This document shows positions 165 to 22,778 of a DNA stretch of 64,000 nucleotides, piece by piece (position 1 is the stretch's first letter; the number at the start of each line of letters is the position of its first letter). Location: assembly GCF_965641715.1 (NCBI RefSeq), contig NZ_OZ282453.1; one strand, given 5' to 3'. The notes beneath the pieces are model-generated. The model was not told the DNA's origin, ran no database searches, and saw nothing but the letters and a program-made list of their open reading frames with translations. Both the position numbers and the translations under genes were made by a program. The DNA comes from Escherichia coli (GTDB taxonomy: Bacteria > Pseudomonadota > Gammaproteobacteria > Enterobacterales > Enterobacteriaceae).

Positions 165-200
165 AAAAAACCTGCTGGTGAGGCAGGTTCTTTTATTTAC
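165..200. terminator. Hairpin (7-bp stem AACCTGC/GCAGGTT) flanked by an A-run on one side and a T-rich tract on the other; possible bidirectional intrinsic terminator
   Basis: Seen in sequence: aaaaaaaCCTGCtggtgagGCAGGttcttttattt. Confidence 0.4.
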
Positions 201-572: not shown

Positions 573-680
573 CGGGCAAATTGAAACGCATCTAAGGGGG
601 AAACCGCTTCCCCCTTTAATAAAGCTATACTCGTCATACTTCAAGTTGCATGTGCTGCGACTTGAATTATCTAGAGTATA

Positions 681-998: not shown

Positions 999-1058
999 CG
1001 CTTTCCCCGCTGGTAAGTCGTGTTGATAACGGGCAGTTGCATCACTGCCCGCTGTGTT

Positions 1059-4691: not shown

Positions 4692-4700
4692 GCTCTTTCC

Positions 4701-7700
4701 TTATTCAAACAGGGCTTCAATATCGTTAATTAGCTCGCTGGCGGTGATGGCATCGAGTACGGAGAGCTGCGCTTCCTGTATTGAATTACTCCCCCAGCCA
4801 TAGCTTTCCGCTTTGCCTTCCCATAGCCACAGCTTGCTTAAGAGTTGCTCGGCACTCAGTTCGGCTGGCGACATGCCTACCGCAAAGCCTTCATCGATTT
4901 CCATGATTAACGACCAGCGGCCCAGAGGTTTGATCATCCAGCCGATCCAGCCTCCATCCTGTGGTTCGCCCTTTATCCAGCCTTTATTCGCCAGCCCCAT
5001 TACCCGACCGCTCGGGCATTTTCTGCCTGCCCAGCGGGTCAGTTCGCTGGCATTGCGCTCGGTTTCTGTCAGGGCGTAACTGTTACGGTCGAGCTGGCGG
5101 AACGGCGGTAGCAGTTCGTAGTCGGCAAAAAGCTGCCCAAATGCGGCGGCATCCGTCGGTGATATTTCCAGAACGTGAGGAATACCAACAGAGATATCGC
5201 CTTCCGGCAGGGTGAAAAGATCATCGTCAGCGGTGCTGTAGCTGTTATCTTCCGCTACGCGGAAGCACGTCAGTAGCTGGTTTTCGGTGCTATAAACGCC
5301 CCAAATCAGACGGCGGGTTAAGTGGTGTACCAGTGGATGTTCAACCAGGAAGAGCTGAAAGTTTTCTGGCGACCAGCGGCGACGCAGGCACATGGCGGAT
5401 TCCAACCTTGCTACCTGCTGGGCGGCGACGGTACGCGCATCTTTTTTCAGCAGTTTGTAGCGGTTAACAGCATCGTTCGCCTGTGATTCATCATCGCTTT
5501 TGTTTGGTTTGGGCAGGTCTTTCAGACGGCTGCCGGAAGCGTCACGCACAAACGGTTTTAAGGTTTCATCAAAGCTGACGGTGAACTGGCGTGGGCCGAA
5601 ATCCAGCAGCAACGAACCGTTATCATCCAGACTGAGATCCGGTGCTAACCGATCTTCAAGCTCCGCCACTGTCAGTTCGCGACTTTCAGCAATGTCGGCA
5701 ATTTTCTCTTTCGCCCGCTCCTGTAAAGCTTTGAATTTCAGTTTCTGAGCAATGCCGTTAAGCTGCATCAGAGCGATATCACTACCGATAGCGGCGAGAA
5801 TATCCAACCCAACGGTGGCGCGTTTATGCTGAGATTCGCCAGGCCAGGCGCGTATTAATGGCGTCAGTTTGCGAGCGGTGTCGTCGTTACCGAGAACACA
5901 TAACGCAGTGAACGCCCAGCTTTCTTTCGATGGTGCACCCGTAGTCAGCCAGGCGGTAAACAGATCCCAGGCAAATTCAGCCAGTGAGTCGGCGGTACAG
6001 GCATCTTTCACCTGCAATAATCCCGGATACAGCGCCTCTTCCTGAGGGAAGCGGAGCATTTCACCGAGGTGGAGGAGGGCGTTATCTGGCAGTACCTTGC
6101 TGCTATTTTTGAGTTTTGGGCGAGTCCATAATGGAGGTTGATAAAACAACGGTAAAGGGGGGATTTTCGCCGGGTATTTACCCACAGGACTGTTGTCGTT
6201 ATTTTTATTTTGAGTTTCCCAGGGCGGCGAGACTAGTACCATTGGTAGAATTTCTGAGTTTGCAAAATCTTCATTGCGACTATTCAGCAATTGCTGACAT
6301 TGTTGCAATAAATTTGCCGCTTGCGACGATAATCCGATGACTAATTTTTCGACCAATAAAGGATTTGCATTAAGTAATGAAACCAGCAACGTATGTTTGC
6401 GTTTATCATCTTTTTTTACCAATTCTTCGGCTAATGCCGCTATCGTGGCAGAAGGAAAATTTTCGGCACTTTTTATTAGTCGTTCATAACAGCGTTTATT
6501 AGTATCGGCGGCTTCGATGAGTGCCGTAATGGCCAACGGATGATTAATACATTTCAGTACGTCACCGCAATTATCTTCTTCAGCATAGGAAGCCAGGCGA
6601 GCCAGTGCCGCTATACCTTGTTCCCGTAATACCGTAGCTGACCAACTGGCACCATAGGTGTTAAATACATCAATGTATTGATAGTTCTCCAGTATTTCGA
6701 GCGTGAATGGATCTGTCGCTACCAGTTTCAACATTTCAAGTTGTGGAACATCTGCGACCTGGTGTAAACGATGTACGATCTCATGGGCCACTTCGGGTAT
6801 TTCTGGCATTAAAATGGCAATTAACGGTTGGCGATAGAGTGATATATCTGGTAACGCAACGAGTAATTTTGCAATGCAATTTTGCCATACTTCTTCTTCT
6901 GCTAGTGATAAATGTTTACGCAGACGTAAACTAAATTTGTCGTTATTCCTTCTATAACTGTCCTTGCTGCTATCTGCATAATTAATAAAGAAAGTCAAAT
7001 GTTCATCTTTATAGTCAAAATCGAAATCAATTTGCCACCAGAAGATGACAGTTTCAGTTGCGTATTCGATACCGAAGGTGCTTACAATTTCATCCAGCAA
7101 CTCGGATGAGGTTTCATCATTCCAGCCCTGACAAAAACATATTTCCAGAAAAGTAAGTACCGCCATAGTACGCGCGGGTATCTCAGTCTTTTGGGCCTTA
7201 ATTAAGCTGATTGCCTGGCTAATCGCATCAGCCCATTCATCAGAGCATGAGCTGTAATCGAAAGTCAGATTTTTATAATAATGATAAGTACGATTTGCCA
7301 ATCGGGAAATTAAATTTTGTTTTTCGGGTTTGGTTGGTTTTTTAACTGGCTCTCCCGGCCAAAGGCGGTGGCTGAGGGCATGGCGGGCAATATTCGGGGG
7401 AAGAATAATGGGATCGTTGTCTGCCAGCCAGGGTAAACCATTAGTTGCTGCCTGGCGATTTATTGAGGCTTTTTCCTCTGTGACCAGGACTTTCTTTGCT
7501 GAGGCATCATGTGAGTGAGCGTTAGCGTCTACTTGCTCCACATACCCCTTCTTCACCTTCTCCGCAATCAGCTTCAGTTCCACTTTTTCCGCCGCCGCAG
7601 CATCTGCAAAGCTTTTTACCTGACTTTGCCCGTTAGTGCCGACTTTACCCCAGGTTATATGCAGCTCGTTTCCCTGCTGCTCCACCGCCCAGAATTTATG

Positions 7701-7733
7701 TGATTTTTCGTCCTGATAAATATAGGTTTTCAT
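4701..7733 (-). CDS. Large paralog (1010 aa) with N-terminal WGR-like domain and DUF4132-like C-terminal region
   Basis: Track ORF; N-terminus MKTYIYQDEKSHKFWAVEQQGNELHITWGKVGTNGQ is WGR-like; C-terminal half aligns by eye with its neighbours. Confidence 0.65.
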   Translation of the reverse strand: MKTYIYQDEKSHKFWAVEQQGNELHITWGKVGTNGQSQVKSFADAAAAEKVELKLIAEKVKKGYVEQVDANAHSHDASAKKVLVTEEKASINRQAATNGLPWLADNDPIILPPNIARHALSHRLWPGEPVKKPTKPEKQNLISRLANRTYHYYKNLTFDYSSCSDEWADAISQAISLIKAQKTEIPARTMAVLTFLEICFCQGWNDETSSELLDEIVSTFGIEYATETVIFWWQIDFDFDYKDEHLTFFINYADSSKDSYRRNNDKFSLRLRKHLSLAEEEVWQNCIAKLLVALPDISLYRQPLIAILMPEIPEVAHEIVHRLHQVADVPQLEMLKLVATDPFTLEILENYQYIDVFNTYGASWSATVLREQGIAALARLASYAEEDNCGDVLKCINHPLAITALIEAADTNKRCYERLIKSAENFPSATIAALAEELVKKDDKRKHTLLVSLLNANPLLVEKLVIGLSSQAANLLQQCQQLLNSRNEDFANSEILPMVLVSPPWETQNKNNDNSPVGKYPAKIPPLPLFYQPPLWTRPKLKNSSKVLPDNALLHLGEMLRFPQEEALYPGLLQVKDACTADSLAEFAWDLFTAWLTTGAPSKESWAFTALCVLGNDDTARKLTPLIRAWPGESQHKRATVGLDILAAIGSDIALMQLNGIAQKLKFKALQERAKEKIADIAESRELTVAELEDRLAPDLSLDDNGSLLLDFGPRQFTVSFDETLKPFVRDASGSRLKDLPKPNKSDDESQANDAVNRYKLLKKDARTVAAQQVARLESAMCLRRRWSPENFQLFLVEHPLVHHLTRRLIWGVYSTENQLLTCFRVAEDNSYSTADDDLFTLPEGDISVGIPHVLEISPTDAAAFGQLFADYELLPPFRQLDRNSYALTETERNASELTRWAGRKCPSGRVMGLANKGWIKGEPQDGGWIGWMIKPLGRWSLIMEIDEGFAVGMSPAELSAEQLLSKLWLWEGKAESYGWGSNSIQEAQLSVLDAITASELINDIEALFE

Positions 7734-7745
7734 TGTTAAATCCTT

Positions 7746-10700
7746 TTAATCAAACAGTGATTCAATGTCGTTAATCAGCTCGCTGGCGGTGATGTCGTCG
7801 AGCATGGAGAAAGTGGGTGAGGATTGTTTACCATAGCGATCATAAGGGGCGGTGATTTTTACGCTTTCGACAGGCAGCAGGTCGCTATACCCCGTTTCGC
7901 CATAAATTAATGAAAAAGGTTCCGTTTCAAGTTCGAGAGCACCATAAGGGGTAGATTTGCGCATCGCATAAACGCTGCCGCTTTCTTCCAGACGTTGCCA
8001 GCCTCGGCGTTCCAGCCCGACAATGCGTCCGGCCTGGCAGAGACGTCCGTTCCAGCGTGACAATTCATGGACATTACGTTCGTTATCAGCAAGGTGGTAA
8101 CTACCACGTTCGAGCTGTTGGAAAGGGGGAAGCAGTTCGTAATCAACGTAAATTTGCCTGAATGCAGCGGCGGATTCAGGGGGGATTTCCAGCACATGCG
8201 GTATACCGATGTTTCCTGCTGGCAGCGTGAATAACTCATCCTGCGCATCGCTGTAAGTGCTGTCTTCTGCCACGCGAAAACAGGTGATAAGAGCGTTTTC
8301 ATCGTTATAAACCCCCCATAACAGCCGTCGGGTTAAGTGACGTACCAGCGGATGCTCCACCAGAAACAGGCGGAACTGCTCTGCCGTCCAGCGTCTGCGC
8401 TGGCACATAGCCTGTTCCAGACGGGTAATATGCTGGCTGGCGATAGCACGAACATCTTTTTTCAACTGTTTGAAGAGATTAACTGCGTCAGTTGCCAGTG
8501 TTTTATCATCGCTCTGGTTTGGCTTAGGTAAATCTTTCAGGACTTTGCCGTTTGCATCGCACACTACAGGTTTTAAGGTTTCGTCAAAACCAACGGTGAA
8601 TTTGCGGGGGCCGAAATCCAGTATCAGCGAGCCACTGCTATCAAGCCCTAAATCTGGAGCCAGGCGGTCTTCCATTTCAGCCATAGTCAGCCCACGGTTT
8701 TCAGCAACTATGTTGATTTTCTCGCGGGCATGTTCCTGTAATGCTTTGAATTTAATTTTTCGCGCGATGCCATTAAGCAGCATTAGCGCAACATCGCTGC
8801 CAATATCAGCTAATACATCCAGCCCGGACACCGCCCGTTTATGCTGGGATTCCCCAGGCCAGGCGCGGATAAGCGGGGTTAATTTACGCGCGGTGTCGTC
8901 ATTGCCTAAAATCCCAAGCGAAGTAAATGCCCAGTTTTCTTTTGCGGGTGCGCCAGCTTCTGTCCAGGCGGTATACAGATCCCAGCCAAATTCAGCCAGT
9001 GATTCGCGGGTGAAGATTTCTCTAATGATATCCAGCCCAGCGTAGGCGGTAATGTCGCGAGGAAAGCTCAGCATAGTGCCGAGGTGGCGCATAGCGTCAT
9101 CTGACAGAGGCAGGTTGTTACTTTTAAGCCGTGGTCTGCGCCATAAGGTGAACTGATAAAAGCCGGGCAGTGGGGCGATTTTAGCGGGATATTCTTCCAG
9201 CGGCTCGCTATCAAATAATGTTGCCAGCGCAGCTAAAACATCAGGTTGGTTATACCCCTGGGCGATTTCTTCAATCGTTTCTCGCTGGTTTAAATTCACC
9301 AGCAGACGAAGCGCCTGGCGGGCACAATCACGATCTTTTCCTTTTTTGCCCAAGGCCACAGGAAGTAGCCCGGCGGCAGCATGGCGTGGGAAGTTAGCCA
9401 GCCATTTTCGAGCATCTTCAGCAGACATTTTTTTCTGTAATCGCTGCGCCATCGGTAATGCTAATTCGCTGACGCCCAGGAAGAGGGTGAATATCCATAA
9501 CTGTTGTGGCTTACGTTGCAGACATTTCATAAACGCAGGAATGGCCGCATCACCAAAAATCGCCAGAATTTCTCTCTCGCCGGAGAATTGCTCTTCATTA
9601 ATTATTTGATTGAGAAAAGAAATAGCATGCTGAGTGGGTAGGAAGCAGAGCGCGTACAACTGCCAGTGTCTGCTTCCTTTGTTATGGTATTGCGCAAACT
9701 CGGCTTTCAGCGCGGGGAAATCGAAACGTAACAGGGCATCAACTGCGCTTTGTGGCATTATTTTTTTTTCGTATTGTTCTTCTCCGGTTCTGCGCCATTC
9801 CTTAAACCCCAGTCGCCAAAGGATTTGCTGTTCTGGCGTTAAAGGGATGAAAGACGTTTCCCAGCGTTCTTTTTTTATCGGTGGCAGGTCGGTAAATAAG
9901 GTTTGCTGTGATGCCTGATATTGCGCGATTTCACTGAATCTGGATATGTCAGTATGACTGATTAACTCTGTAATTCCTGGTGTGATATCCGTGACGGCAG
10001 GAATGGGAAGTACCGGTAAATCAAATACGGGTATGACATTCTTTTTCTTATTTATTACCCACGGTGGAGCGACAAGCAGCTCCGGCAACATATCCACAGT
10101 GGCATATTCACATTCTTCAGCTACTGGCAGCGGACGACATTCAGATAAGATGCCTGCCGCCTTAGCATTAACCCAGGGAATGACCTCGCATACTAACTCT
10201 GGCGTGGCGGTAATCAGTTTGACAAGCGCTTTACGCCACTCATTATTTTCATGTATTGCCAGCAAAGTAGCATAAGCGGCAATAGCCGCAGCGGGATGTT
10301 TTTGGCAGGCTTTGCTTAAGTATTCCAGGTGCTTTTTCTTGCCATTTACACCGAGGATCAGAATTTGAATCGCATCCGGGTGATTCGTTTTCCATAGCCA
10401 TTTGACAAGATCTTCAGTCTCGCTGATACGCTCGAAGAGATAAGTGGGATTGTCAGAATGCTCTTCCGTAAACTCAAGAAGTATCCGGCTTACACCGCGC
10501 ACCCCATTATTTGCCAGCAACATTGCCAGATAAGCGCGAAAATCATGATACAACGGTGGGAAGTCGTATTTTTCTGCTGTAGTCAGAGCGGCGTCATCGG
10601 TTACCACCAGTCTTAACCAGGTCATCGCCGGAACGTTTTGATCTGCATAACGTAGCGCCATAGCATTGGCAATATCCGGGCGTTCAGGGAGCAGTAACGC

Positions 10701-11543
10701 CGCAAAAGGTTGTCGTGCTGGGGATAGCGAGGGAATAGCAGCGAGTACTTTATCTACACAGCGTTGCCACTCATCTTCTGAAGCGAGTGAAAGATGATGA
10801 CATAGACGTTGATGCCAACTCGGTAGCGATTCTGCTTCGTGATTAGGTGGAATGATGGTGGTTACTGCGCCTTTTACTGGTTTATATTTGAGTTGAAGAG
10901 CGAGAAGGGCGATTTCAACGGCACTTTCCAGACCACAGCGAATGACTAAGTCATCGACCAGTTCATCTTGAGAGTAAGAGTTCCAAAAGCCCCAGAGCAA
11001 TGCTGCATCAGATTGCGCACTCCCTGTCGGTTGATTACCCTTAACTCGCATTTGTAACTCAGCAAAAGCCTGCTGCCAGTTTTCTGGATAAGAGCGGTAA
11101 TTGTTGTCGGGATCATATGCCCTGGTGTTATTCGCGATGCGCTTCCATATTTGGCCATCTTTGTACAGATAATTGATCTCTCTGGGGCGAGAGCGATGAG
11201 GAAAAGCAAATCGATTAATATCGTCAGTGACCGGAATGACTGCATCATCAGCCAGCCAGGGGCGTTGGTTTTTACTCTCAGGGGAAGTTTCAACTTCAGG
11301 AGTGGCTTTGGTAATGGGGGGGATATGCACGTTTGCTGAAGCATTTTCCACATAGCCTTTTTTCGTTTTCTCCGCGATAAGCTTCAGTTTCGCTTTTTCC
11401 GCTGCTGCAACATCAGCAAAATTTTTTACCTGGCTTTGCCCTTGGGTACCAACTTTTCCCCAGCTGATATGCAACTCGTTTCCCTGCTGCTCCACCGCCC
11501 AGAATTTATGTGATTTTTCGTCCTGATAGATAAAGTGTCTCAT
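7746..11543 (-). CDS. molR: MolR-like large protein (1265 aa), intact; WGR-like N-terminus plus DUF4132-like region
   Basis: Track ORF 1265 aa next to metG; N-terminus MRHFIYQDEKSHKFWAVEQQGNELHISWGKVG; in K-12 this gene is, as I recall, a pseudogene. Confidence 0.6.
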   Translation of the reverse strand: MRHFIYQDEKSHKFWAVEQQGNELHISWGKVGTQGQSQVKNFADVAAAEKAKLKLIAEKTKKGYVENASANVHIPPITKATPEVETSPESKNQRPWLADDAVIPVTDDINRFAFPHRSRPREINYLYKDGQIWKRIANNTRAYDPDNNYRSYPENWQQAFAELQMRVKGNQPTGSAQSDAALLWGFWNSYSQDELVDDLVIRCGLESAVEIALLALQLKYKPVKGAVTTIIPPNHEAESLPSWHQRLCHHLSLASEDEWQRCVDKVLAAIPSLSPARQPFAALLLPERPDIANAMALRYADQNVPAMTWLRLVVTDDAALTTAEKYDFPPLYHDFRAYLAMLLANNGVRGVSRILLEFTEEHSDNPTYLFERISETEDLVKWLWKTNHPDAIQILILGVNGKKKHLEYLSKACQKHPAAAIAAYATLLAIHENNEWRKALVKLITATPELVCEVIPWVNAKAAGILSECRPLPVAEECEYATVDMLPELLVAPPWVINKKKNVIPVFDLPVLPIPAVTDITPGITELISHTDISRFSEIAQYQASQQTLFTDLPPIKKERWETSFIPLTPEQQILWRLGFKEWRRTGEEQYEKKIMPQSAVDALLRFDFPALKAEFAQYHNKGSRHWQLYALCFLPTQHAISFLNQIINEEQFSGEREILAIFGDAAIPAFMKCLQRKPQQLWIFTLFLGVSELALPMAQRLQKKMSAEDARKWLANFPRHAAAGLLPVALGKKGKDRDCARQALRLLVNLNQRETIEEIAQGYNQPDVLAALATLFDSEPLEEYPAKIAPLPGFYQFTLWRRPRLKSNNLPLSDDAMRHLGTMLSFPRDITAYAGLDIIREIFTRESLAEFGWDLYTAWTEAGAPAKENWAFTSLGILGNDDTARKLTPLIRAWPGESQHKRAVSGLDVLADIGSDVALMLLNGIARKIKFKALQEHAREKINIVAENRGLTMAEMEDRLAPDLGLDSSGSLILDFGPRKFTVGFDETLKPVVCDANGKVLKDLPKPNQSDDKTLATDAVNLFKQLKKDVRAIASQHITRLEQAMCQRRRWTAEQFRLFLVEHPLVRHLTRRLLWGVYNDENALITCFRVAEDSTYSDAQDELFTLPAGNIGIPHVLEIPPESAAAFRQIYVDYELLPPFQQLERGSYHLADNERNVHELSRWNGRLCQAGRIVGLERRGWQRLEESGSVYAMRKSTPYGALELETEPFSLIYGETGYSDLLPVESVKITAPYDRYGKQSSPTFSMLDDITASELINDIESLFD

Positions 11544-11683
11544 TCTGCATCCCTGTAATTTTATCCAGTTGAATGCAGATGCTACCAGTATTTATGCGGG
11601 TTAGAGAGAGACAAAATCGTAAGAAAACAACTTTAGGAATTTATAAAGAAAAGGCGCTGTCGATGCAGCGCCTTGAAGGGGGA

Positions 11684-13717
11684 TTATTTCACCTGATGAC
11701 CCGGTTTAGCACCAGCATCCGGGCTTAGCAGGAAAATATCTTTCCCGCCAGGACCGGCAGCCATCACCATGCCTTCGGAGATACCGAAGCGCATTTTACG
11801 TGGTGCCAGGTTAGCCACCATAATGGTGTGACGACCAATCAGTACCTGCGGATCCGGGTAAGCAGAACGAATGCCAGAGAAGACATTGCGTTTTTCACCG
11901 CCGAGATCCAGCGTCAGGCGCAGCAGTTTGTCAGAACCTTCAACAAACTCTGCGTTTTCAATCAGCGCCACGCGCAGGTCAACTTTAGCGAAGTCGTCAA
12001 AGGTGATGGTTTCCTGAATCGGATCATCTGCCAGCGGGCCAGTTACCGGCGCGGCAGCTGCTTTCACTTCTTCTTTAGACGCTTCCACCAGTGCTTCAAC
12101 CTGCTTCATATCTATGCGGTTATACAGCGCCTTGAACGGATTCACTTTATGGCCCAGCAGCGGTTGCTGGATACCATCCCAGGTCAGTTCCGTATTCAGG
12201 AATGCTTCTGCGCGCTCGGTCAGTTTCGGCAGTACCGGCTTCAGGTAAGTCATCAGCACGCGGAACAGGTTTATGCCCATCGAGCAAATTGCCTGCAGGT
12301 CAGCATCGCGGCCTTCCTGTTTCGCCACCACCCACGGAGCCTGTTCATCGACATAGCGGTTAGCCAGATCAGCCAGCGCCATGATTTCGCGCACTGCTTT
12401 ACCAAATTCGCGGCTTTCCCACGCTTCACCAATCACTTCAGCGGCATCAGTGAAGGTTTTGTACAACTGCGGGTCAGCCAGTTCGCTTGCCAGCACGCCG
12501 TCAAAACGCTTGTTGATAAAGCCCGCATTACGAGAGGCCAGGTTAACCACTTTGTTAACGATATCGGCATTCACGCGCTGAACGAAATCTTCCAGGTTGA
12601 GATCGATATCATCAATGCGCGAAGAGAGTTTCGCAGTGTAGTAGTAACGCAGGCTGTCGGCGTCAAAATGATTCAGCCAGGTGCTGGCCTTAATAAAGGT
12701 GCCACGAGACTTAGACATCTTCGCGCCATTCACCGTCACATAGCCGTGAACAAACAGGTTGGTCGGCTTGCGGAAGTTGCTGCCTTCCAACATGGCAGGC
12801 CAGAACAGACTGTGGAAGTAAACGATGTCTTTGCCGATGAAGTGATACAGCTCAGCGGTGGAATCTTTCTTCCAGTATTCATCGAAGTTTACAGTGTCGC
12901 CGCGCTTGTCGCACAGATTCTTGAAAGAACCCATGTAGCCAATCGGTGCGTCCAGCCAGACGTAGAAGTATTTGCCCGGCGCGTTCGGAATTTCGAAACC
13001 GAAGTACGGTGCATCTCGGGAGATATCCCACTGTTGCAGGCCGGATTCAAACCATTCCTGCATTTTGTTGGCCACCTGCTCCTGCAACGCGCCGCTGCGA
13101 GTCCATGCCTGCAACATTTCGCTGAAAGAGGGCAGATCAAAGAAGAAGTGTTCGGAATCACGCATTACCGGCGTAGCGCCAGAAACCACCGATTTTGGTT
13201 CGATCAATTCAGTCGGGCTATATGTTGCGCCGCAGACTTCACAGTTATCGCCGTATTGATCCGGCGATTTACATTTCGGGCAGGTACCTTTCACAAAACG
13301 GTCCGGCAGGAACATGCCTTTTTCCGGATCGTACAGTTGAGAGATGGTGCGGTTTTTAATAAAACCGTTCTCTTTCAGGCGGCTGTATATAAGCTCCGAC
13401 AGCTGACGGTTCTCTTCGCTGTGCGTAGAGTGGTAATTGTCGTAGCTGATGTTAAAGCCTGCGAAATCAGTCTGATGTTCCTGACTCATTTCGCCAATCA
13501 TCTGCTCCGGGGTGATACCAAGCTGCTGAGCTTTCAGCATGATTGGCGTACCGTGGGCATCGTCGGCGCAGATGAAGTTGACTTCGTGGCCGCGCATTCG
13601 CTGGTAACGGACCCAGACATCAGCCTGGATGTGCTCCAGCATATGGCCGAGGTGGATTGAGCCGTTGGCGTACGGCAGTGCGCACGTTACCAGAATTTTC
13701 TTCGCGACTTGAGTCAT
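11684..13717 (-). CDS. metG: Methionine--tRNA ligase
   Basis: Translation [29 protein letters not shown] (HIGH motif), KMSKS present, C-terminal tRNA-binding domain; start set at MTQ rather than the track's upstream MPT. Confidence 0.95.
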
Positions 13718-13884
13718 AGTAGGCATTACTTCTTTGTAGTGAAAAGGGCTTAGATAGTACCAAATGGGGCATGGTTACGTAAGTCCTGTGCAAGCATCTT
13801 ATGATGCATTATTAGGTAAGTACTTAGCTGTTAACTTCAGGTAAACTAATAGCGATAAGTTATCTTTATAAATAAGGAGTCGGG

Positions 13885-14994
13885 ATGAACGAACAATCCC
13901 AGGCCAAATCACCAGAAGCCTTGCGCGCAATGGTCGCCGGGACACTGGCCAATTTTCAGCACCCAACCCTGAAGCATAACCTCACCACGCTGAAAGCGTT
14001 GCACCATGTCGCCTGGATGGACGACACGTTGCATGTGGAACTGGTTATGCCATTCGTCTGGCATAGCGCGTTTGAAGAGTTAAAAGAGCAATGTAGCGCC
14101 GAACTGCTGCGTATCACCGGGGCGAAAGCTATCGACTGGAAACTGTCGCACAATATCGCCACCTTAAAACGCGTGAAGAATCAGCCGGGTATTAATGGCG
14201 TGAAGAACATCATTGCGGTCAGTTCCGGTAAAGGCGGCGTGGGTAAATCCTCCACGGCGGTAAACCTGGCGCTGGCACTGGCGGCGGAAGGGGCGAAAGT
14301 CGGTATTCTGGACGCCGATATCTACGGCCCATCAATTCCCACCATGCTGGGCGCAGAAAATCAGCGTCCAACTTCGCCGGACGGTACCCATATGGCACCG
14401 ATTATGTCTCATGGCCTGGCAACCAATTCAATTGGTTATCTGGTCACTGACGACAATGCGATGGTGTGGCGTGGACCGATGGCGAGCAAGGCGTTAATGC
14501 AGATGTTGCAGGAAACCTTGTGGCCGGATCTCGACTATCTGGTGCTTGATATGCCGCCAGGCACCGGTGACATTCAATTGACGCTGGCGCAGAACATTCC
14601 GGTAACTGGTGCAGTCGTGGTCACCACCCCGCAGGACATCGCGTTGATCGATGCGAAAAAAGGCATTGTGATGTTCGAGAAAGTCGAGGTTCCGGTGCTC
14701 GGTATTGTCGAGAACATGAGTGTGCATATTTGTAGTAACTGTGGTCACCATGAACCGATTTTCGGTACCGGTGGTGCAGAGAAACTGGCTGAAAAATACC
14801 ATACACAGCTGCTGGGGCAGATGCCGTTACACATCTCCTTACGTGAGGATCTCGATAAAGGCACGCCAACGGTTATCAGCCGTCCGGAGAGCGAATTTAC
14901 CGCTATCTACCGCCAGCTGGCTGACCGCGTTGCAGCTCAGCTCTACTGGCAGGGTGAAGTTATTCCAGGCGAGATTTCCTTCCGCGCGGTCTAA
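13885..14994 (+). CDS. apbC: Fe-S cluster carrier ATPase ApbC/Mrp
   Basis: 369 aa; P-loop SGKGGVGKS; divergent from metG. Confidence 0.9.
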   Translation: MNEQSQAKSPEALRAMVAGTLANFQHPTLKHNLTTLKALHHVAWMDDTLHVELVMPFVWHSAFEELKEQCSAELLRITGAKAIDWKLSHNIATLKRVKNQPGINGVKNIIAVSSGKGGVGKSSTAVNLALALAAEGAKVGILDADIYGPSIPTMLGAENQRPTSPDGTHMAPIMSHGLATNSIGYLVTDDNAMVWRGPMASKALMQMLQETLWPDLDYLVLDMPPGTGDIQLTLAQNIPVTGAVVVTTPQDIALIDAKKGIVMFEKVEVPVLGIVENMSVHICSNCGHHEPIFGTGGAEKLAEKYHTQLLGQMPLHISLREDLDKGTPTVISRPESEFTAIYRQLADRVAAQLYWQGEVIPGEISFRAV

Positions 14995-15255
14995 CGCCTA
15001 TTAACCATTCTGGTTATTCTTCATACACCGCAGAGATGTTACATTGATGCGGTGTATTTGTTTTTGCCGCATTAATGAACACTTATTTAATACTGCGAAT
15101 ATTCAGTGGATCTTAGTCCGAAACTGTACAAAGGCGATTGATTGTGCAACCACTGTCTCTTTATCATCCCTCGTGGCTGTGTAGCGGATGTACAGCTATA
15201 GTGTGTTATGCACTCAATCTACCCGGCATAACCTTTACTACAGGGATAACGTTCA

Positions 15256-15537
15256 ATGAATAAGTATTGGTTGTCAGGAGCTGTTTTTCTTGCTTATGGA
15301 CTAGCATCACCCGCGTTCTCTTCTGATACTGCAACATTAACCATCAATGGCAGAATTAGTTCCCCTACATGCAGTATGGATGTTGTTAATAATCATCTTC
15401 AGCAACGTTGTGGGCAGTTGTTACAACGAGTTGAAACCAACTATCGTGCTTCTTCTACTGCAAAAGGCGTTACGACAGAAGTGGTAGCTGTGGGTAATAA
15501 CGACAAACGCAAAATCGTGTTAAATCGCTACGATTAA
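15256..15537 (+). CDS. yehE: Small secreted protein YehE-like (93 aa)
   Basis: Signal-peptide-like N-terminus; position upstream of the fimbrial operon. Confidence 0.55.
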   Translation: MNKYWLSGAVFLAYGLASPAFSSDTATLTINGRISSPTCSMDVVNNHLQQRCGQLLQRVETNYRASSTAKGVTTEVVAVGNNDKRKIVLNRYD

Positions 15538-15828
15538 TTTGCCAACACCGTTTTAAGCATATTTAAAAAGCCAAAATCATTCCTATGAATGATTTTGGCT
15601 TTTTTATTCATCCCATAAATGTTATTTACGGTAATTTACGGTAATTAATCAGTTTCAAAAATGTTTGTTATAGCGAATTATTTGTTGTATTTATATCGCA
15701 TTAGTTAATTTGTTTTAAATCAACAAAACAATATGTTTACATTGCGGCAACCTTTTTGATGTGAGAAATTTGTTTCCAAGAGATACAGACTCTTAACAAA
15801 ACAAAATAAACTTATTAAGGAATGCATC

Positions 15829-16371
15829 ATGAAACATTCAATTATTGCTGTCGCTGTCTTATCTTCTGTATTTATGAGTGCTGGTATTTTCGCTGCTGAA
15901 GTAGATACCGGAACTTTAACCATTAAAGGTAATATTGCTGAATCACCATGTACATTTGTCGCTGGCGGTGATTCAGTCAGTATTAATATGCCGACTGTAC
16001 CCACCACTGTATTTGATGGAAAAGCGAAATATTCAACTTATGATGGCGCGGTTGGTGTAACCAGCAGTATGCTGAAAATTACTTGTCCGAAGACTATTGA
16101 TGGCGTAAAACTTTCGTTGATCACCAACGAGAAAATTCTTGGTAATGATAAGGCAATATCCAGTAGTAATGACACAGTTGGATACTATCTCTATTTGGGA
16201 GATAGCAGTGACGTACTGGATATTTCCGCACCATTTAATATTGAAAGTTATAAAACTGCTGATGGACAATATGCAATACCGTTTAAGGCAAAATATCTGA
16301 AGTTGACTGACAGTGGTGTTGCATCTGGTACTGTTAACTCTTCATTGGTTATGCGTGTTGCCCAGGATTAA
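15829..16371 (+). CDS. yehD: Fimbrial major subunit (chaperone-usher pathway)
   Basis: 180 aa, signal peptide MKHSIIAVAVLSSVFMSAGIFA, fimbrillin-like; first gene of the yeh operon. Confidence 0.75.
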   Translation: MKHSIIAVAVLSSVFMSAGIFAAEVDTGTLTIKGNIAESPCTFVAGGDSVSINMPTVPTTVFDGKAKYSTYDGAVGVTSSMLKITCPKTIDGVKLSLITNEKILGNDKAISSSNDTVGYYLYLGDSSDVLDISAPFNIESYKTADGQYAIPFKAKYLKLTDSGVASGTVNSSLVMRVAQD

Positions 16372-16410
16372 ATATTTAAAATAATCATCTTGTTTTTTCA
16401 GTAAGTTAAA

Positions 16411-17133
16411 ATGGCCGCCATATTCATGGCGGCCAGCATAAATATAAGAGGCATTAAGATGAAAGGGTTATTATCTTTACTCATCTCTTCTATGATATTC
16501 CCCGTGCATGCCGGAATGGTTATTTTCGGGACCCGTATCATTTACCCGGCAGAGCAGAAAGAGGTCATGGTACAACTGATGAATCAGGGAAACCGCTCTT
16601 CGCTGATGCAGGCGTGGATTGATGATGGCGACACGTCTCTGCCGCCAGAAAAGATTCAGGTTCCTTTCATGTTAACGCCACCAGTAGTGAAAGTAGCGGC
16701 CAATTCTGGGCAACAAATAAAAATTAAAATCATGCCTAATAAATTACCCAGTAATAAGGAAAGTATTTTTTATCTTAATGTTCTGGATATTCCACCGAAT
16801 AGCCCAGAAGATGAAGGAAAGAATGCGTTAAAATTTGCCATGCAAAACAGAATCAAGTTGTTTTACCGACCTGCTGGTATTGCTCCGGTAAATAAAACGA
16901 CTTTTAAAAAATTACGAGTGAGTCGTAGCGGTAATAACGTAGTCATAAAAAATGACTCGCCAAATTGGGTAACGATTTCTGATGTTAAGGCTAATAACGT
17001 CAAAGTGAATTATGAAACAATCATGATTGCACCACATGAAAGTCAGAATGTTAGTGTAAAAAATAATAATGCGAATAGCTGGCAACTGACCATTATCGAT
17101 GACCACGGCAACTATATTAGTGACAAAATTTAA
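16411..17133 (+). CDS. yehC: Periplasmic fimbrial chaperone (PapD-like)
   Basis: Track ORF; signal peptide MKGLLSLLISSMIFPVHAG; PapD-like motifs (IYPAEQKE, NRIKLFYRP); true start may be the internal Met at 16459. Confidence 0.8.
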   Translation: MAAIFMAASINIRGIKMKGLLSLLISSMIFPVHAGMVIFGTRIIYPAEQKEVMVQLMNQGNRSSLMQAWIDDGDTSLPPEKIQVPFMLTPPVVKVAANSGQQIKIKIMPNKLPSNKESIFYLNVLDIPPNSPEDEGKNALKFAMQNRIKLFYRPAGIAPVNKTTFKKLRVSRSGNNVVIKNDSPNWVTISDVKANNVKVNYETIMIAPHESQNVSVKNNNANSWQLTIIDDHGNYISDKI

Positions 17134-17148
17134 TTGCAGGAGCTGCCT

Positions 17149-19629
17149 ATGTTGAGAATGACCCCACTTGCATCAGCAATAGTCGCGTTATTGCTCGGCA
17201 TTGAAGCACATGCAGCAGAAGAAACCTTTGACACCCATTTTATGATGGGAGGAATGAAAGGTGAGCAAGTAACAAATTTGCGTCTTGATGATAATCAGCC
17301 TTTACCTGGGCAGTACGACATTGATATTTATGTCAATAAACAATGGCGTGGAAAATATGAGATTATCGTCAAAGATAACCCACATGAAACTTGCCTGACG
17401 CGTGAAATTGTAAAGCGGTTAGGTATAAATAGCGATAATTTTGCACGCGAAAATCAGTGTTTAACATTTGAGCAACTTGTTCAGGGCGGAAGCTACTCCT
17501 GGGATATTGGGATTTTTCGTTTGGATCTCGCTGTTCCGCAAGCCTGGGTCGAAGAGCTGGAAAATGGTTACGTTCCGCCAGTAAACTGGGAGCGGGGAAT
17601 CAATGCGTTTTATACGTCTTATTACGTAAGTCAGTATTACAGTGACTATAAAGCCTCGGGCAATAGTAAGAGCACTTATGTGCGTTTTAACAGTGGGCTA
17701 AATTTGCTGGGATGGCAGCTGCATTCAGATGCCAGTTTTAGCAAAACGGATAATAATCCTGGTGAGTGGAAAAGCAACACACTGTTTCTGGAGCATGGAT
17801 TTTCTCAAATTCTCGGTGCGCTGCGTATTGGTGATATGTACACCTCATCCGATATATTTGATTCCGTTCGCTTCACCGGGGTTCGGTTATTTCGTGATAT
17901 GCAGATGTTGCCAAACTCGAAGCAAAATTTTACCCCACGGGTACAGGGGATTGCCCAGAGTAACGCGTTGGTAACTATTGAACAGAACGGTTTTGTCGTT
18001 TATCAGAAAGAGGTTCCACCAGGTCCGTTTTCGATTAGTGATTTGCAGTTAGCGGGCGGAGGGGCGGATCTTGATGTTAGTGTTAAGGAAGCCGATGGTT
18101 CTGTGACTACGTATCTGGTGCCTTATGCGGCAGTACCTAATATGCTGCAACCAGGTGTATCAAAATATGATTTTGCGGCAGGCCGTAGTCATATTGAAGG
18201 TGCGAGCAAGCAAAGTGATTTTGTCCAGGTCGGTTATCAGTATGGTTTTAATAATTTATTGACGCTGTATGGCGGCACGATGGTTGCTAATAATTACTAT
18301 GCCTTTACCCTCGGAACAGGTTGGAACACGCGTATTGGCGCAATTTCAGTCGATGCAACTAAATCGCACAGTAAGCAAGACAATGGTGATGTGTTTGACG
18401 GACAAAGTTATCAAATTGCCTATAACAAATTTTTGAGCCAAACATCAACACGTTTTGGTCTGGCGGCCTGGCGTTATTCGTCGCGTGATTACCGCACATT
18501 TAACGATTATGTGTGGGCAAATAATAAAGATAATTATCGTCGTGATAAAAACGATGTCTATGATATTGCCGATTATTACCAGAATGATTTTGGTCGCAAA
18601 AATAGCTTTTCCGCCAATATGAGTCAGTCATTGCCAGAAGGCTGGGGATCTGTGTCATTAAGTACTTTATGGCGTGATTACTGGGGGCGAAGCGGCAGTA
18701 GTAAAGATTATCAACTGAGTTATTCCAATAACTGGCGGCGGATAAGCTATACCCTCGCGGCAAGCCAGGCGTATGACGAGAACCACGCCGAAGAGAAACG
18801 CTTTAATATTTTTATATCGATTCCCTTTGACTGGGGCGATGACGTTACGACGCCGCGGCGGCAAATATATATGTCTAACTCAACGACCTTTGATGATCAG
18901 GGTTTTGCTTCAAACAATACCGGATTATCGGGAACCGTTGGGAACCGCGATCAGTTTAACTATGGTATCAACTTGAGCCATCAACATCAGGGAAATGAAA
19001 CGACAGCTGGGGCCAATTTGACCTGGACCGCACCGGCCGCAACAGTGAATGGCAGCTATAGTCAGTCGAGTACTTATCGACAGGTCGGAGCCAGTGTTTC
19101 AGGGGGACTGGTTGCCTGGTCTGGTGGCGTTAATCTGGCGAACCGTCTTTCCGAAACGTTTGCAGTGATGCATGCGCCGGGAATCAAAGATGCTTATGTC
19201 AATGGGCAAAAATATCGCACAACAAACCGTAATGGTGTGGTGGTGTACGACGGACTGACACCTTATCGGGAAAATCACCTGATGATGGATGTGTCGCAAA
19301 GCGATAGCGAAACAGAATTACGCGGGAATCGTAAAATGACCGCCCCTTATCGCGGCGCGGTCGTTCTGGTTGATTTTGATACCGATCAGCGTAAGCCCTG
19401 GTTTATAAAAGCATTAAGATCCGATGGACAGCCATTAACGTTTGGTTATGAAGTCAATGATATGCATGGTCATAACATTGGTGTTGTCGGCCAGGGCAGT
19501 CAGATATTTATTCGCACCAATGAAATACCGCCAGCGGTTAATGTGGCAATTGATAAGCAACAAGGGCTTTCATGCACAATCACCTTCGGTAAAGAGATTG
19601 ATGAAAGTAAAAATTATATCTGTCGGTGA
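17149..19629 (+). CDS. yehB: Fimbrial outer-membrane usher
   Basis: About 826 aa from MLRMTPLASAIVALLLG; usher-type; start set at an internal ATG of the track ORF. Confidence 0.85.
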   Translation: MLRMTPLASAIVALLLGIEAHAAEETFDTHFMMGGMKGEQVTNLRLDDNQPLPGQYDIDIYVNKQWRGKYEIIVKDNPHETCLTREIVKRLGINSDNFARENQCLTFEQLVQGGSYSWDIGIFRLDLAVPQAWVEELENGYVPPVNWERGINAFYTSYYVSQYYSDYKASGNSKSTYVRFNSGLNLLGWQLHSDASFSKTDNNPGEWKSNTLFLEHGFSQILGALRIGDMYTSSDIFDSVRFTGVRLFRDMQMLPNSKQNFTPRVQGIAQSNALVTIEQNGFVVYQKEVPPGPFSISDLQLAGGGADLDVSVKEADGSVTTYLVPYAAVPNMLQPGVSKYDFAAGRSHIEGASKQSDFVQVGYQYGFNNLLTLYGGTMVANNYYAFTLGTGWNTRIGAISVDATKSHSKQDNGDVFDGQSYQIAYNKFLSQTSTRFGLAAWRYSSRDYRTFNDYVWANNKDNYRRDKNDVYDIADYYQNDFGRKNSFSANMSQSLPEGWGSVSLSTLWRDYWGRSGSSKDYQLSYSNNWRRISYTLAASQAYDENHAEEKRFNIFISIPFDWGDDVTTPRRQIYMSNSTTFDDQGFASNNTGLSGTVGNRDQFNYGINLSHQHQGNETTAGANLTWTAPAATVNGSYSQSSTYRQVGASVSGGLVAWSGGVNLANRLSETFAVMHAPGIKDAYVNGQKYRTTNRNGVVVYDGLTPYRENHLMMDVSQSDSETELRGNRKMTAPYRGAVVLVDFDTDQRKPWFIKALRSDGQPLTFGYEVNDMHGHNIGVVGQGSQIFIRTNEIPPAVNVAIDKQQGLSCTITFGKEIDESKNYICR

Positions 19630-19639
19630 GAGGTGAAAT

Positions 19640-20674
19640 ATGATGTTCAGAAATGCAATATTACTAATATTTATATTGTGGGCTAATTTTACCTGGGCTG
19701 GATGTCGTACTACTGCATCATTAAATATTACTGATAGTATTAATGTTGGGGGGATTTTAGCGAATGAAACTTCCTTTAGTAAAAGTGTCGTGTTTACTGG
19801 GATATCTTGTGATACGAGCACGGATAAAATAGTTTATAAAAATATCCAAAGTGATTGGGTTGAAGTTGGGCCTTTTGGTAATGGCGAAAAATTAAAGGTT
19901 AAAATAGAGTCTTTAGGTAAAACCAGCGACACGATTGGGAAATCCAGCAATGCGCAGGCAGTATTACCCTATGTGGTTAAAATAGCCAGAGGTACACCTG
20001 ATTTTACTGGAGAAAGAAAATCTACCTGGTTTATTTCAGATACCGTGATTGCAAATATTGGCGGTGAGTCATCGTCATCCATCGACTTTTGGTTGGGTAT
20101 TTGTAAGGCATTGAAGTTTAACTGGTGTGTGAATTATCTCACCAGCAAACTGGCGGGGGATACTTTTACGCTTGGGTTAAGTATTTCCTATTATCCTAAA
20201 AATACGACCTGTAAGCCTGAAAACACAGTTATAAAAGTAGATGATATCGCCTTGTCCCAGCTCAGAAATCAGGGAAAGATTGCGGCGAACAGTAAGGAAG
20301 GAACAATTACGTTGAAATGTGATAATCTTTTCGGCGACAAAAAACAAGCATCGCGGAATATGGTTGTATATCTTTCTAGCAGTGACTTAGTTAAAGGAAG
20401 TAATACTATTTTGCGTGGTAAAACAGATAATGGTGTAGGGTTTGTGTTGGATCTAACAGAACCACCAAAAGGGACTGAGGCTGCCATTAAAATTTCGGCC
20501 AACGGCGATCAGGGCGCGGCGACATCATTATGGAAAACAGATAAACCAGGAGTTTCATTAAATAGCAACATTATTAATATACCTGTCATGGCCAGTTACT
20601 ATGTATATGATGAAAAAAAAGTTAAATCTGGCGTACTGGAGGCAACCGCATTAATCAACGTGAAATACGACTAA
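19640..20674 (+). CDS. yehA: Fimbrial adhesin-like tip protein
   Basis: 344 aa with signal peptide; last gene of the operon; AT-rich. Confidence 0.7.
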   Translation: MMFRNAILLIFILWANFTWAGCRTTASLNITDSINVGGILANETSFSKSVVFTGISCDTSTDKIVYKNIQSDWVEVGPFGNGEKLKVKIESLGKTSDTIGKSSNAQAVLPYVVKIARGTPDFTGERKSTWFISDTVIANIGGESSSSIDFWLGICKALKFNWCVNYLTSKLAGDTFTLGLSISYYPKNTTCKPENTVIKVDDIALSQLRNQGKIAANSKEGTITLKCDNLFGDKKQASRNMVVYLSSSDLVKGSNTILRGKTDNGVGFVLDLTEPPKGTEAAIKISANGDQGAATSLWKTDKPGVSLNSNIINIPVMASYYVYDEKKVKSGVLEATALINVKYD

Positions 20675-20755
20675 TAACAAGCAAGACGAGCAAGTGGCTA
20701 ATAATAAGAAATAATAAGGTGTCTGCATTTCCCCCTCTCTCCGAGGGGGCTTTTT

Positions 20756-21094
20756 TTAGCGATGATAAAAAATCTCACCGTCGTAGGCTTTAATGATTTT
20801 TCCGTCGGTATTATTGATCAGCACATATGCACCGCCCATATAGGTCCAGTGGGTTCCGGCGTCAGGTGCGGGCAGGTTACGCAACTGCCACTGCTTAATG
20901 TTGTACTCATCGGTACGGTACATCTCTGGTACGGTGTCACCTGGTTTGAAATGCTTGAAGTCAGCAATGAAGCTGCTTAACTCATACTTTGAAATTCCCG
21001 AGGCATTGGTCGAACCCGCGGTGGCTGGTGCGGCCCATGCTGCGCTGGTTACCAGCAAAAGCGCACCCAGCAACATCTTATTTTTTATGGTCAT
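20756..21094 (-). CDS. rcnB: Periplasmic nickel/cobalt homeostasis protein RcnB (YohN)
   Basis: 112 aa from MTIKNKMLLGALLLVTSAAWA (signal peptide); downstream of rcnA; track ORF is longer but the start was chosen at the signal peptide. Confidence 0.7.
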   Translation of the reverse strand: MTIKNKMLLGALLLVTSAAWAAPATAGSTNASGISKYELSSFIADFKHFKPGDTVPEMYRTDEYNIKQWQLRNLPAPDAGTHWTYMGGAYVLINNTDGKIIKAYDGEIFYHR

Positions 21095-21311: not shown

Positions 21312-22163
21312 TTATCTCATAATACCCATAAAGCCATGCACTCCCATATACAACCCGACTAAACCAATCAACAGACTGGAAAAATAGGGGGCGCGTTTAG
21401 CGAGAGTGTTAAATCCGCTCCAGCGTTTTGCAACTTGTTGAACACTGATTGCCGCTCCAACGCCTACTGTAACCAGCGTTAATGCCAGGCCGATGCTGAA
21501 ACTGACGACCAGTGTTGCGCCCAGTGTCAGGGCTTTCAACTGAATGCAAATCAACAGCACGGTAATTGCTGCCGGGCAGGGAATAAGGCCACCTGTTAAG
21601 CCAAATAACAAAATTTGCCAGTTGGTGACCTCTCTACCATCAAAGCGTCGTTTAATGTCATTGGCATGGGCTCGTGCATGGGCATCCTGATACTCTTCGT
21701 TGTCGCCATGTTCATGATGGTGATGATGTTCGTGGTCGTGGTCGTGGTCGTGGTCTTGATGATCTTCGTGATCGTGGTGATGATGCTCATGATCATGCTC
21801 GTGCATATTCTCCAGCCAGTTGCGTTCGCCGCGCCAGGTACGCCAGAACATCCAGAACGCGGTGCCAATAATGATCACTGCGGAAATCAACTGGAGCCAC
21901 GGTTCTGCTGATTGAGCAGTAAAGCGCTTGCTGATCACCATCCCGCCAAAGGCAATCAACCAGACCACCGCGGTATGCGAAATGGTTGCTGCCAGTCCGA
22001 GCATCACCGCCTGTTTAGTGGTGCCTTTGATGGCGATGATAAACGCCGCCATCATCGTTTTTGAGTGCCCTGGTTCCAGGCCATGAAGCGCACCAAGTAA
22101 GATGGCGCTGGGGATGAAGAACCAGGCGTTTCCTTGCTGAAGAAGAGTTGTAAATTCGGTCAT
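21312..22163 (-). CDS. rcnA: Nickel/cobalt efflux permease RcnA
   Basis: 283 aa membrane protein with a central His/Asp/Glu-rich loop (HEHDHEHHHHDHEDHQDHDHDHDHEHHHHHEH). Confidence 0.9.
   Translation of the reverse strand: MTEFTTLLQQGNAWFFIPSAILLGALHGLEPGHSKTMMAAFIIAIKGTTKQAVMLGLAATISHTAVVWLIAFGGMVISKRFTAQSAEPWLQLISAVIIIGTAFWMFWRTWRGERNWLENMHEHDHEHHHHDHEDHQDHDHDHDHEHHHHHEHGDNEEYQDAHARAHANDIKRRFDGREVTNWQILLFGLTGGLIPCPAAITVLLICIQLKALTLGATLVVSFSIGLALTLVTVGVGAAISVQQVAKRWSGFNTLAKRAPYFSSLLIGLVGLYMGVHGFMGIMR
21732..21755. repeat. Hexanucleotide tandem repeat (GTGGTC x4 on the + strand) encoding the HD-repeat part of the RcnA His-rich loop
   Basis: Seen in sequence: cgtggtcgtggtcgtggtcgtggtc. Confidence 0.7.
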
Positions 22164-22283: not shown

Positions 22284-22556
22284 ATGTCTCATACAATCCG
22301 TGATAAACAGAAACTGAAAGCGCGTGCCAGTAAGATTCAGGGCCAGGTCGTGGCGCTCAAGAAAATGCTCGACGAGCCGCACGAATGCGCTGCAGTTTTA
22401 CAACAGATTGCTGCTATCCGTGGCGCGGTAAACGGTCTGATGCGGGAAGTGATTAAAGGTCATCTGACGGAACACATCGTTCACCAGGGGGATGAGCTAA
22501 AACGTGAAGAAGATCTGGATGTTGTTCTGAAGGTGCTGGATTCATATATCAAATAA
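22284..22556 (+). CDS. rcnR: Ni/Co-responsive transcriptional repressor RcnR (CsoR/RcnR family)
   Basis: 90 aa; divergent from rcnA; contains the H-x-C-containing helix typical of the family. Confidence 0.85.
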
Positions 22557-22644
22557 TTTATTAACGCGATTGTAAAACTGCCGTTTTTCCTCGTTTACAA
22601 CGGGTGCGCTGGACATTACCATCCTCCTCTGCGATTTATCATCG

Positions 22645-22778
22645 CAACCAAACGACTCGGGGTGCCCTTCTACGTGAAGGCTGAGAAATACCCGTATCAC
22701 CTGATCTGGATAATGCCAGCGTAGGGAAGTCACGGACCACCAGGTCATTGCTTCTTCACGTTATGGCAGGAGCAAACT
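22645..22778 (+). promoter_or_regulatory. TPP (THI-box) riboswitch leader of thiMD
   Basis: Sequence ggggtgcccttctacgtgaaggctgagaaatacccgtatcacctgatctggataatgccagcgtagggaa matches the classic thiM aptamer; lies immediately upstream of the thiM start. Confidence 0.8.

Follow-up and report, generated by a model that had tools for sequence, protein, structure and literature searches.

Does a markedly AT-rich fimbrial gene cluster betray a recent arrival on the Escherichia coli chromosome, or can such a composition belong to an old resident whose genes are exchanged in place? This question is raised by positions 15256-20674 of the window (the whole 64-kb stretch of E. coli DNA that was analyzed, on which all coordinates are based), which the original prediction had described as an AT-rich yehEDCBA operon for chaperone-usher fimbriae, with a composition consistent with fimbriae that are horizontally acquired, silenced by H-NS, and cryptic. 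From our own analysis, which supplied the gene content, intactness, composition, allele identity, synteny, terminator, and recombination pattern given below, we are confident that the region is the chromosomal yeh-locus chaperone-usher cluster in its Yhl form, with a low G+C content (GC) that is ancient and an allele that recently recombined. As a feature it is real, intact, and correctly recognized, yet ordinary and already described. The cluster comprises the following five genes.

15256..15537, + strand: yehE, a secreted protein of 93 residues (Pfam PF10836, DUF2574, 1.9e-42)
15829..16371, + strand: yehD (yhlA in the Hultgren nomenclature), the major pilin of 180 residues (Pfam Fimbrial, 29.9 bits, cutoff 25.6)
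16459..17133, + strand: yehC (yhlB), a PapD-like periplasmic chaperone of 224 residues (PapD_N 1.1e-40, PapD_C 1.4e-9)
17149..19629, + strand: yehB (yhlC), the outer-membrane usher of 826 residues (PapC_N 8.9e-34, Usher 5.1e-192, PapC_C 2.2e-9)
19640..20674, + strand: yehA (yhlD, Z3276), a two-domain tip adhesin of 344 residues, with the receptor-binding domain (RBD) at residues 21-191 (19700-20212) and the pilin domain at residues 186-344

All five genes are co-directional and free of internal stop codons, with the first base of the region at the start of yehE and the last at the stop of yehA, and their open reading frames (ORFs) equal the O157:H7 counterparts in length and encode proteins 98-100% identical to them. 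The gap between yehE and yehD is 291 nt, while those that follow are of 87 nt (yehD-yehC), 15 nt (yehC-yehB), and 10 nt (yehB-yehA). For yehC we took the ATG at 16459, which is the RefSeq choice for O157:H7, over an alternative ORF start at 16411, and for yehB the start at 17149 over one at 17134. Here, the two-domain chaperone, the three-domain usher, the Fimbrial-type pilin, and the two-domain tip adhesin that make up a chaperone-usher system are all present, and the full set that had been claimed (major subunit, chaperone, usher, and tip adhesin) is borne out by Pfam domains and intact ORFs. YehB scored 1730 bits against NCBIfam NF011763 (cutoff 933), and the Pfam Fimbrial match in YehA covers its C-terminal half only. 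Moreover, mature YehC begins with GMVIFGTR, which contains Arg8, and carries the lysine of RIKLFYRP; in PapD-type chaperones, this arginine and the Lys112-type lysine anchor the C-termini of subunits. The N-terminal donor-strand motif of YehD, TGTLTIKGNIAESPC, is kept across orthologues.

The form of the cluster is revealed by its adhesin. In a search of the PDB with YehA, the sole match at E <= 0.01 was 8V9V, to which residues 21-191 are identical at 168 of 171 positions (E = 8.5e-109), and this structure is the RBD of YhlD from O157:H7 Sakai (PMC12778044). YehD is likewise identical to that of O157:H7 throughout (180/180). Against K-12, identities are 71% for YehE, 86% for YehD (154/180), 88% for YehC, and 92% for YehB, but just 37% for YehA (122/333), with the yehA DNA alignable to K-12-type genomes over its last ~84 nt only; the adhesin is not of the K-12/UTI89 type (YehA of K-12, YehD of UTI89). 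Judged by these alignments, the allele is of the minority O157:H7-type Yhl form and not of the K-12 form. We found the Yhl-type full-length adhesin gene in 649 of 5426 complete E. coli genomes, which agrees with the published figure of about one-eighth of genomes, mostly of phylogroup E, for yhlD (PMC12778044). A protein sequence identical to YehA of the window is on record as E. coli. According to the literature, Yeh and Yhl are related gamma4 pili encoded by a minimal set of four genes, for a major subunit, a chaperone, an usher, and an adhesin (Tamadonfar et al. 2026, PMC12778044), from which, together with PMC7098969, the gamma4 clade placement is taken. The YhlD RBD there consists of a beta-jelly-roll core with an alpha-helical flap, and binds colonic mucosa, while YehD of UTI89 binds pectin and luminal contents (PMC12778044).

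As for composition, the AT-richness relative to the flanks that was originally predicted holds: the region has 40.9% GC, while the remainder of the window has 50.1% and the 5 kb on either side have 50.1% and 50.7%. Among 5.4-kb stretches sampled along the 64 kb, this is the lowest value (minimum of 40.9% at 15301, median of 49.0%). At third codon positions, the GC of the yeh genes is 28-42%, whereas metG, mrp, rcnA, thiM, and thiD have 49-62%, and the trough is deepest in the yehE-yehD intergenic region (27-32%, with 27% for the spacer itself). Orthologous loci of other genera are likewise GC-poor against their own flanks, as in C. youngae (43% versus 53%).

With regard to location, the gene order between 11.6 and 24.4 kb is metG(-), mrp/apbC(+), yehE-yehD-yehC-yehB-yehA(+), rcnB(-), rcnA(-), rcnR(+), a thiamine pyrophosphate (TPP) riboswitch, thiM, and thiD, such that the cluster lies between mrp/apbC and rcnB and is collinear with the loci as annotated in O157:H7 and K-12. 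By megablast, 5423 of the 5426 complete E. coli genomes have the locus, 5185 of them at a coverage of 80% or more; identity is at least 99% in only 195 of them and 80-90% in 5034. A scan for the usher in one genome per species recovered 16 loci; E. albertii, Citrobacter, and S. enterica arizonae retain the metG-mrp-yehE-operon-rcnB order, and a shorter E. whittamii contig retains mrp-yehE-operon. This confirms the synteny that Wurpel et al. 2013 gave as "data not shown" for a locus described as ancient and associated with the core (PMC3559732). Its low GC is an old and maintained property, and the locus is older than the split between Escherichia, Citrobacter, and Salmonella.

What has moved recently is the allele. 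From yehE to yehA, the window diverges by 0.76% from O157:H7 and by 0.61% from Escherichia sp. E1V33, a representative of a separate GTDB species, while metG, mrp, and rcnBA diverge from these two by 3.7-8.9%, except for mrp against O157 (0.45%). The Yhl allele has recently moved among Escherichia lineages through homologous recombination. Moreover, adhesin and backbone are uncoupled, with a Yhl-like backbone and a non-Yhl adhesin in E. whittamii and the reverse in Escherichia sp. MOD1-EC7003, which places recombination breakpoints at the yehB/yehA junction and near the yehA 3' end. The locus is an ancient AT-rich part of the core whose alleles, the adhesin gene above all, are shuffled by homologous recombination. 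Horizontal acquisition, as originally predicted, applies to the allele in light of its recent recombination and 0.6-0.8% divergence, but not to the locus, which is near-universal, syntenic in Citrobacter and Salmonella, and free of mobility signatures. As a separate observation, the best identities of the surrounding DNA to the 5426 complete genomes are 97.7% (1-15000) and 98.3% (20700-45000), and since flank identity goes no higher, the source lineage is poorly represented among them.

How far the operon extends is a further question, on which the first of the following three hairpin elements bears.

15565..15610, + strand: intrinsic terminator 3' of yehE, an 18-bp perfect hairpin followed by the T-run TTTTTTATT
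16412..16435, + strand: 10-bp GC-rich hairpin between yehD and yehC (dG -19.4 kcal/mol, z = -5.06), with no T-run on the + strand
20731..20757, + strand: terminator-like site in the gap between yehA and the convergent rcnB, a 7-bp stem with six G-C pairs followed by CTTTTTTT

The first of these (dG -22.4 kcal/mol, z = -7.45) occurs in each of the 15 orthologous loci that we examined, which span five genera, Escherichia, Citrobacter, Salmonella, and Superficieibacter among them, and RNAalifold gave 15 base pairs, seven of them with compensatory changes on both sides. For the last, the 91-nt fold around it was no better than shuffled sequences (z = -0.58). In the literature, reverse transcription PCR of the yeh locus, delimited as Z3276-Z3279, gave a single transcript (PMC11287998), and a four-gene operon yehDCBA is described in K-12 and in work from the Hultgren laboratory (PMC5797941, PMC12778044). 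Because of this conserved, covarying terminator and the published unit of yehDCBA or Z3276-Z3279, we read the operon as yehDCBA and yehE as a co-inherited neighbor in its own terminator-bounded unit; the five-gene operon of the original prediction is not supported.

That yehE is nonetheless the first cistron of a yehEDCBA operon and encodes a protein for pilus structure or assembly, we regard as unlikely, though it is the alternative that survives best. In its favor, yehE adjoins the operon in every sufficiently complete locus, is co-directional with it in nearly all, and travels with it when the context changes, as in Superficieibacter and a UBA5654 metagenome-assembled genome, where metG, mrp, and rcn are not neighbors. 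Moreover, the YehE N-terminus is pilin-like (see below), and the single study reporting visualized Yeh fimbriae had cloned yehE along with the four genes (PMC7098969). Against these stand the terminator within the 291-bp gap, the divergent orientation of yehE in UBA5654, where it lies on the opposite strand, and the published delimitations of the transcript (Z3276-Z3279) and of a four-gene operon.

YehE itself belongs to a small family, which makes up 147 clusters (at 90% identity) in a set of 5.8 billion, and every cluster with a named source comes from Escherichia/Shigella, Citrobacter, Salmonella, or Superficieibacter. Up to the first cysteine, the YehE signal peptide and initial mature strand SDTATLTINGRISSPTC resemble those of YehD by BLASTP (E = 2e-4), and hhalign of the YehE and YehD families gave a probability of 96.6% over 44 columns (residues 1-44). 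When the YehE family was used in a profile search of the PDB, the best match was the FimG N-terminus, which is non-significant (E = 0.35). By eye only, the invariant C-terminus IVLNRYD resembles that of YehA (INVKYD). AlphaFold2 models were of low confidence, both for YehE from a 16-sequence alignment (pLDDT 55, pTM 0.25) and for a YehC-linker-YehE fusion from a 45-row alignment (pLDDT 50), in which the chaperone part was poor as well. To see in YehE a pilin-derived accessory factor is speculation. A fuller proposal couples two ideas: that YehE is a miniature, pilin-derived periplasmic component of the Yeh/Yhl/Stc systems, made from its own terminator-bounded unit and, for example, a client of the chaperone that might cap, anchor, or prime the fiber, or else tune its assembly, and that the palindrome described below is the operator of a conserved regulator. 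We offer this combination only tentatively, as the less probable side of the question; no description of such a YehE role or palindrome operator was found in the literature searched.

Upstream of yehD, the AT-rich spacer contains the following elements.

15624..15643, + strand: 10-bp tandem duplication, two copies of ATTTACGGTA
15702..15824, + strand: conserved yehD regulatory core, 123 bp upstream of the yehD ATG
15710-15731, + strand: palindrome TTGTTTTA-N6-TAAAACAA, a perfect inverted repeat of 8 bp that scarcely varies from Escherichia to Superficieibacter
15736-15741, + strand: TTTACA hexamer just downstream of the palindrome
15760-15769, + strand: conserved core element TGTGAGAAAT
15776-15797, + strand: second inverted repeat, CCAAGAG...CTCTTAAC, also a conserved core element
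15817-15822, + strand: AAGGAA, the Shine-Dalgarno sequence, whose GGA fits the CsrA site reported in enterohaemorrhagic E. coli (EHEC) (PMC11287998)

The core, which includes a TGTGAGAA(A)T box, is 91% identical in K-12, 72-78% in Citrobacter and Salmonella, and 67-73% in Superficieibacter; the YehD protein downstream is only 33-40% identical in most of those genera. The palindrome looks like a candidate operator for a regulator. The ATTTACGGTA repeat, in turn, is a single copy in E. whittamii and two degenerate copies in K-12. A search of Rfam found no match inside the locus; nearby there is only the TPP riboswitch upstream of thiMD (22648-22744; RF00059, 71.2 bits, above the gathering score).

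The next rival, which takes the original prediction literally, is that of a recent genomic island from a low-GC donor, silenced by H-NS. It can draw on the deficit of nine points of GC against the flanks, on an allele that has demonstrably moved between lineages, and on K-12, whose yeh locus is called foreign by IslandViewer, GIST, and codon-based predictors and is covered in H-NS chromatin immunoprecipitation (PMC3661553, PMC5797941). In fact, the K-12 yehE-yehD spacer is one of 78 H-NS-bound "promoter islands", and several predictors based on composition mark it as foreign (PMC3661553). However, the shared position in nearly every E. coli genome and in Citrobacter and Salmonella (PMC3559732) largely refutes a recent island, the low GC is common to the orthologous loci, and the EHEC allele is reported to be expressed (PMC11287998). 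Moreover, we found no tRNA gene between 8000 and 28000, no integrase or insertion sequence element at the locus, whose neighbors are housekeeping genes, and no flanking direct repeats beyond chance-level ones of 14 nt. While the locus is AT-rich as an island would be, it is neither patchy nor absent from close relatives and carries no mobility signature, and we consider such a recent island improbable, clearly more so than the five-gene operon.

Whether the cluster is silent is a separate matter, for which, as for pilus formation, binding specificity, and CsrA control, we rely on literature for near-identical or related alleles. For K-12, yehDCBA is described as H-NS-repressed and SlyA-activated in an account that cites Korea et al. 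2010 (PMC5797941), with SlyA antagonizing H-NS at the yeh locus (PMC5797941, PMC3661553), and expression of K-12 Yeh under laboratory conditions is poor (PMC5797941). For EHEC, whose allele is ~99% identical to that of the window, expression is from the native promoter and stimulated by CsrA and ethanolamine (PMC11287998, PMC7098969), and PMC7098969 cites Low et al. 2006 for native expression as well. There, CsrA binds the 5' untranslated region (5'UTR) of yehD (PMC11287998), and the promoter is more active at 28 °C and the cluster affects expression of the locus of enterocyte effacement (PMC11287998, PMC7098969). In Sakai, induction of ECs2914-2918 gave thin flexible fimbriae by electron microscopy and more adhesion to HeLa cells, and assembly of the surface fiber was seen when the 99%-identical Sakai cluster was expressed in E. 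coli ORN172 (PMC7098969). Because a near-identical EHEC allele is reported as expressed, the "cryptic and silenced" state, although documented for K-12, appears doubtful for the allele of the window.

Some points do weigh against our reading of the locus. YehD, the chaperone, and the adhesin fall short of the cutoffs of their NCBIfam equivalog models, which we attribute to divergence of the allele. The high-affinity H-NS consensus TCGATAAATT, allowing up to two mismatches, has 92 matches in the window against 75 expected, with 10 of the 92 in the locus, or 8.5% of the window, where about 8 are expected, and hence no enrichment. A simple sigma-70 consensus scan gave 14 sites against 19 expected and no strong yehD promoter candidate in the spacer; the position of the yehD promoter is therefore inferred from conservation only. 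Moreover, the evidence for expression comes from EHEC strains rather than from the genome of the window, and H-NS control of its allele would be carried over from that of K-12. On the other hand, the view that the cluster is a decaying and non-functional relic, cryptic en route to becoming a pseudogene, is barely credible: it has in its support the poor laboratory expression of K-12 Yeh and the disrupted genes of some relatives (C. koseri L018 and Citrobacter sp. L009), but must contend with five full-length ORFs nearly identical to those of O157:H7, a strongly conserved yehD regulatory region, a Sakai cluster that assembles fimbriae, and the phenotypes of an EHEC yeh deletion (PMC7098969, PMC11287998).

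In comparison with known systems, the closest is Yhl of O157:H7 Sakai (yhlABCD, the ECs2914-2917 region; Z3276-Z3279 in EDL933), which shares the locus, the gene order, proteins at 98-100% identity, and 99.2% of the yehE-yehA DNA. Still, the flanks of the window differ from it by 4-5%, the RBD has three substitutions, and the 2.27-kb insertion that O157:H7 carries between rcnR and thiM is lacking. Yeh of K-12/UTI89 (yehDCBA; RBD in PDB 9N4G, pectin-binding) is the positional orthologue with an identical architecture, close in usher, chaperone, major pilin, and regulatory core at 92%, 88%, 86%, and 91% identity, yet distant in YehE and most of all in the adhesin (71% and 37%), with reported ligands in pectin and luminal contents as opposed to colonic mucosa for Yhl (PMC12778044). 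Salmonella Stc (stcABCD) and the Citrobacter orthologues share the chromosomal position, an usher of 82-84% identity, yehE with its terminator, and the yehD upstream core. In contrast, their major pilin is 33-40% identical in most cases (64% in Citrobacter sp. Res13), and in most of these loci tblastn at 1e-5 did not detect the YehA adhesin.

A "yeh-like" cluster at nhaR-rpsT in Sakai (ECs0019-ECs0024) is also a gamma4-type four-gene system, but it lies at another locus, has no yehE homologue, and differs in an usher of 59%, a chaperone of 57%, and a major pilin of 26% identity, with an unrelated pseudogene as adhesin. It is a different and more distant paralogue, and its usher identity, pseudogenized adhesin, and missing yehE rule it out as the meaning of "Yhl". 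With type 1 (Fim) fimbriae, the assembly logic is common (PapD-like chaperone, usher, donor-strand exchange, and two-domain tip adhesin), whereas Yeh/Yhl lacks FimF/FimG adaptor genes, an invertible promoter switch, and recombinase genes, and the Yhl RBD carries an alpha-helical flap (PMC12778044). Here, the spacer has no GATC, and neither a recombinase gene nor a dedicated regulator gene was found at the locus. A Pap-like Dam/Lrp switch and a Fim-like invertible switch were ruled out by the missing GATC and recombinase genes, and by there being no inverted repeats that bracket the promoter.

Beyond the cluster, the neighborhood shows variation of its own. The 2.27-kb insertion of O157:H7, between rcnR and the thiM TPP riboswitch (11562-13833 of the O157:H7 locus L001, against 22555-22644 of the window), is annotated with an outer membrane protein, a hypothetical protein, and a helix-turn-helix-like fragment, and is missing from K-12 as well. 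The divergent metG-mrp intergenic region (13664-13963) has a 38-nt indel and is ~80% identical to O157:H7 and K-12 but 97-100% to E1V33, and metG is a mosaic in identity (92-99%). In the rcnA region (21464-22063), gaps of 12-27 nt against O157:H7 and K-12 form an in-frame length polymorphism, with a product of 283 residues here versus an 825-nt (274-codon) gene in K-12; this polymorphism may fall in the histidine-rich loop of RcnA. Farther away, 20700-45000 includes a gene annotated as "replication endonuclease", possibly a prophage remnant, near gat and fbaB.

Taking the region as a yehDCBA operon in Yhl form, the fiber would be made as follows. YehD pilins and the YehA/YhlD adhesin would be exported by Sec, captured by YehC through donor-strand complementation, and handed to the usher YehB, which would join them through donor-strand exchange into a fiber, thin and flexible, with the adhesin at its tip; export, capture, and polymerization are established steps of chaperone-usher biology. 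Transcription of yehDCBA would start in the AT-rich yehE-yehD spacer, downstream of the terminator that ends the yehE unit. The hairpin after yehD, which we infer to be an mRNA stabilizer or attenuator, probably raises the ratio of the major subunit to the other products. H-NS may coat AT-rich DNA of the spacer type as it does for the K-12 allele, and CsrA would act on the GGA-containing 5'UTR as shown in EHEC.

Since there are publications on the locus and its AT-richness, on the binding of H-NS in K-12, and on the Yhl allele with its adhesin structure and its expression in EHEC, the finding carries little weight as a discovery. Nevertheless, the name "yeh" conceals a Yhl adhesin, reported to bind mucosa, and not the pectin-binding adhesin of K-12/UTI89, and a different tissue tropism is therefore predicted. 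For diagnostics, Z3276 has been widely employed as a "unique" or "O157:H7-specific" target in quantitative PCR and loop-mediated isothermal amplification (PMC4089424, PMC5679507, PMC10492192), and the quantitative PCR forward primer, reverse primer, and minor groove binder probe all match yehA of the window perfectly at 20133-20360. Judged by its flanks, the window is not O157:H7, and this marker is therefore specific to the allele and not to the serotype; that its target also occurs outside O157 and in a second Escherichia species amounts to a specificity caveat for the assay. More broadly, the locus is a clear exception to the rule that an AT-rich composition marks recent acquisition: its composition is old and maintained, and the true horizontal event here is the replacement of alleles via homologous recombination.

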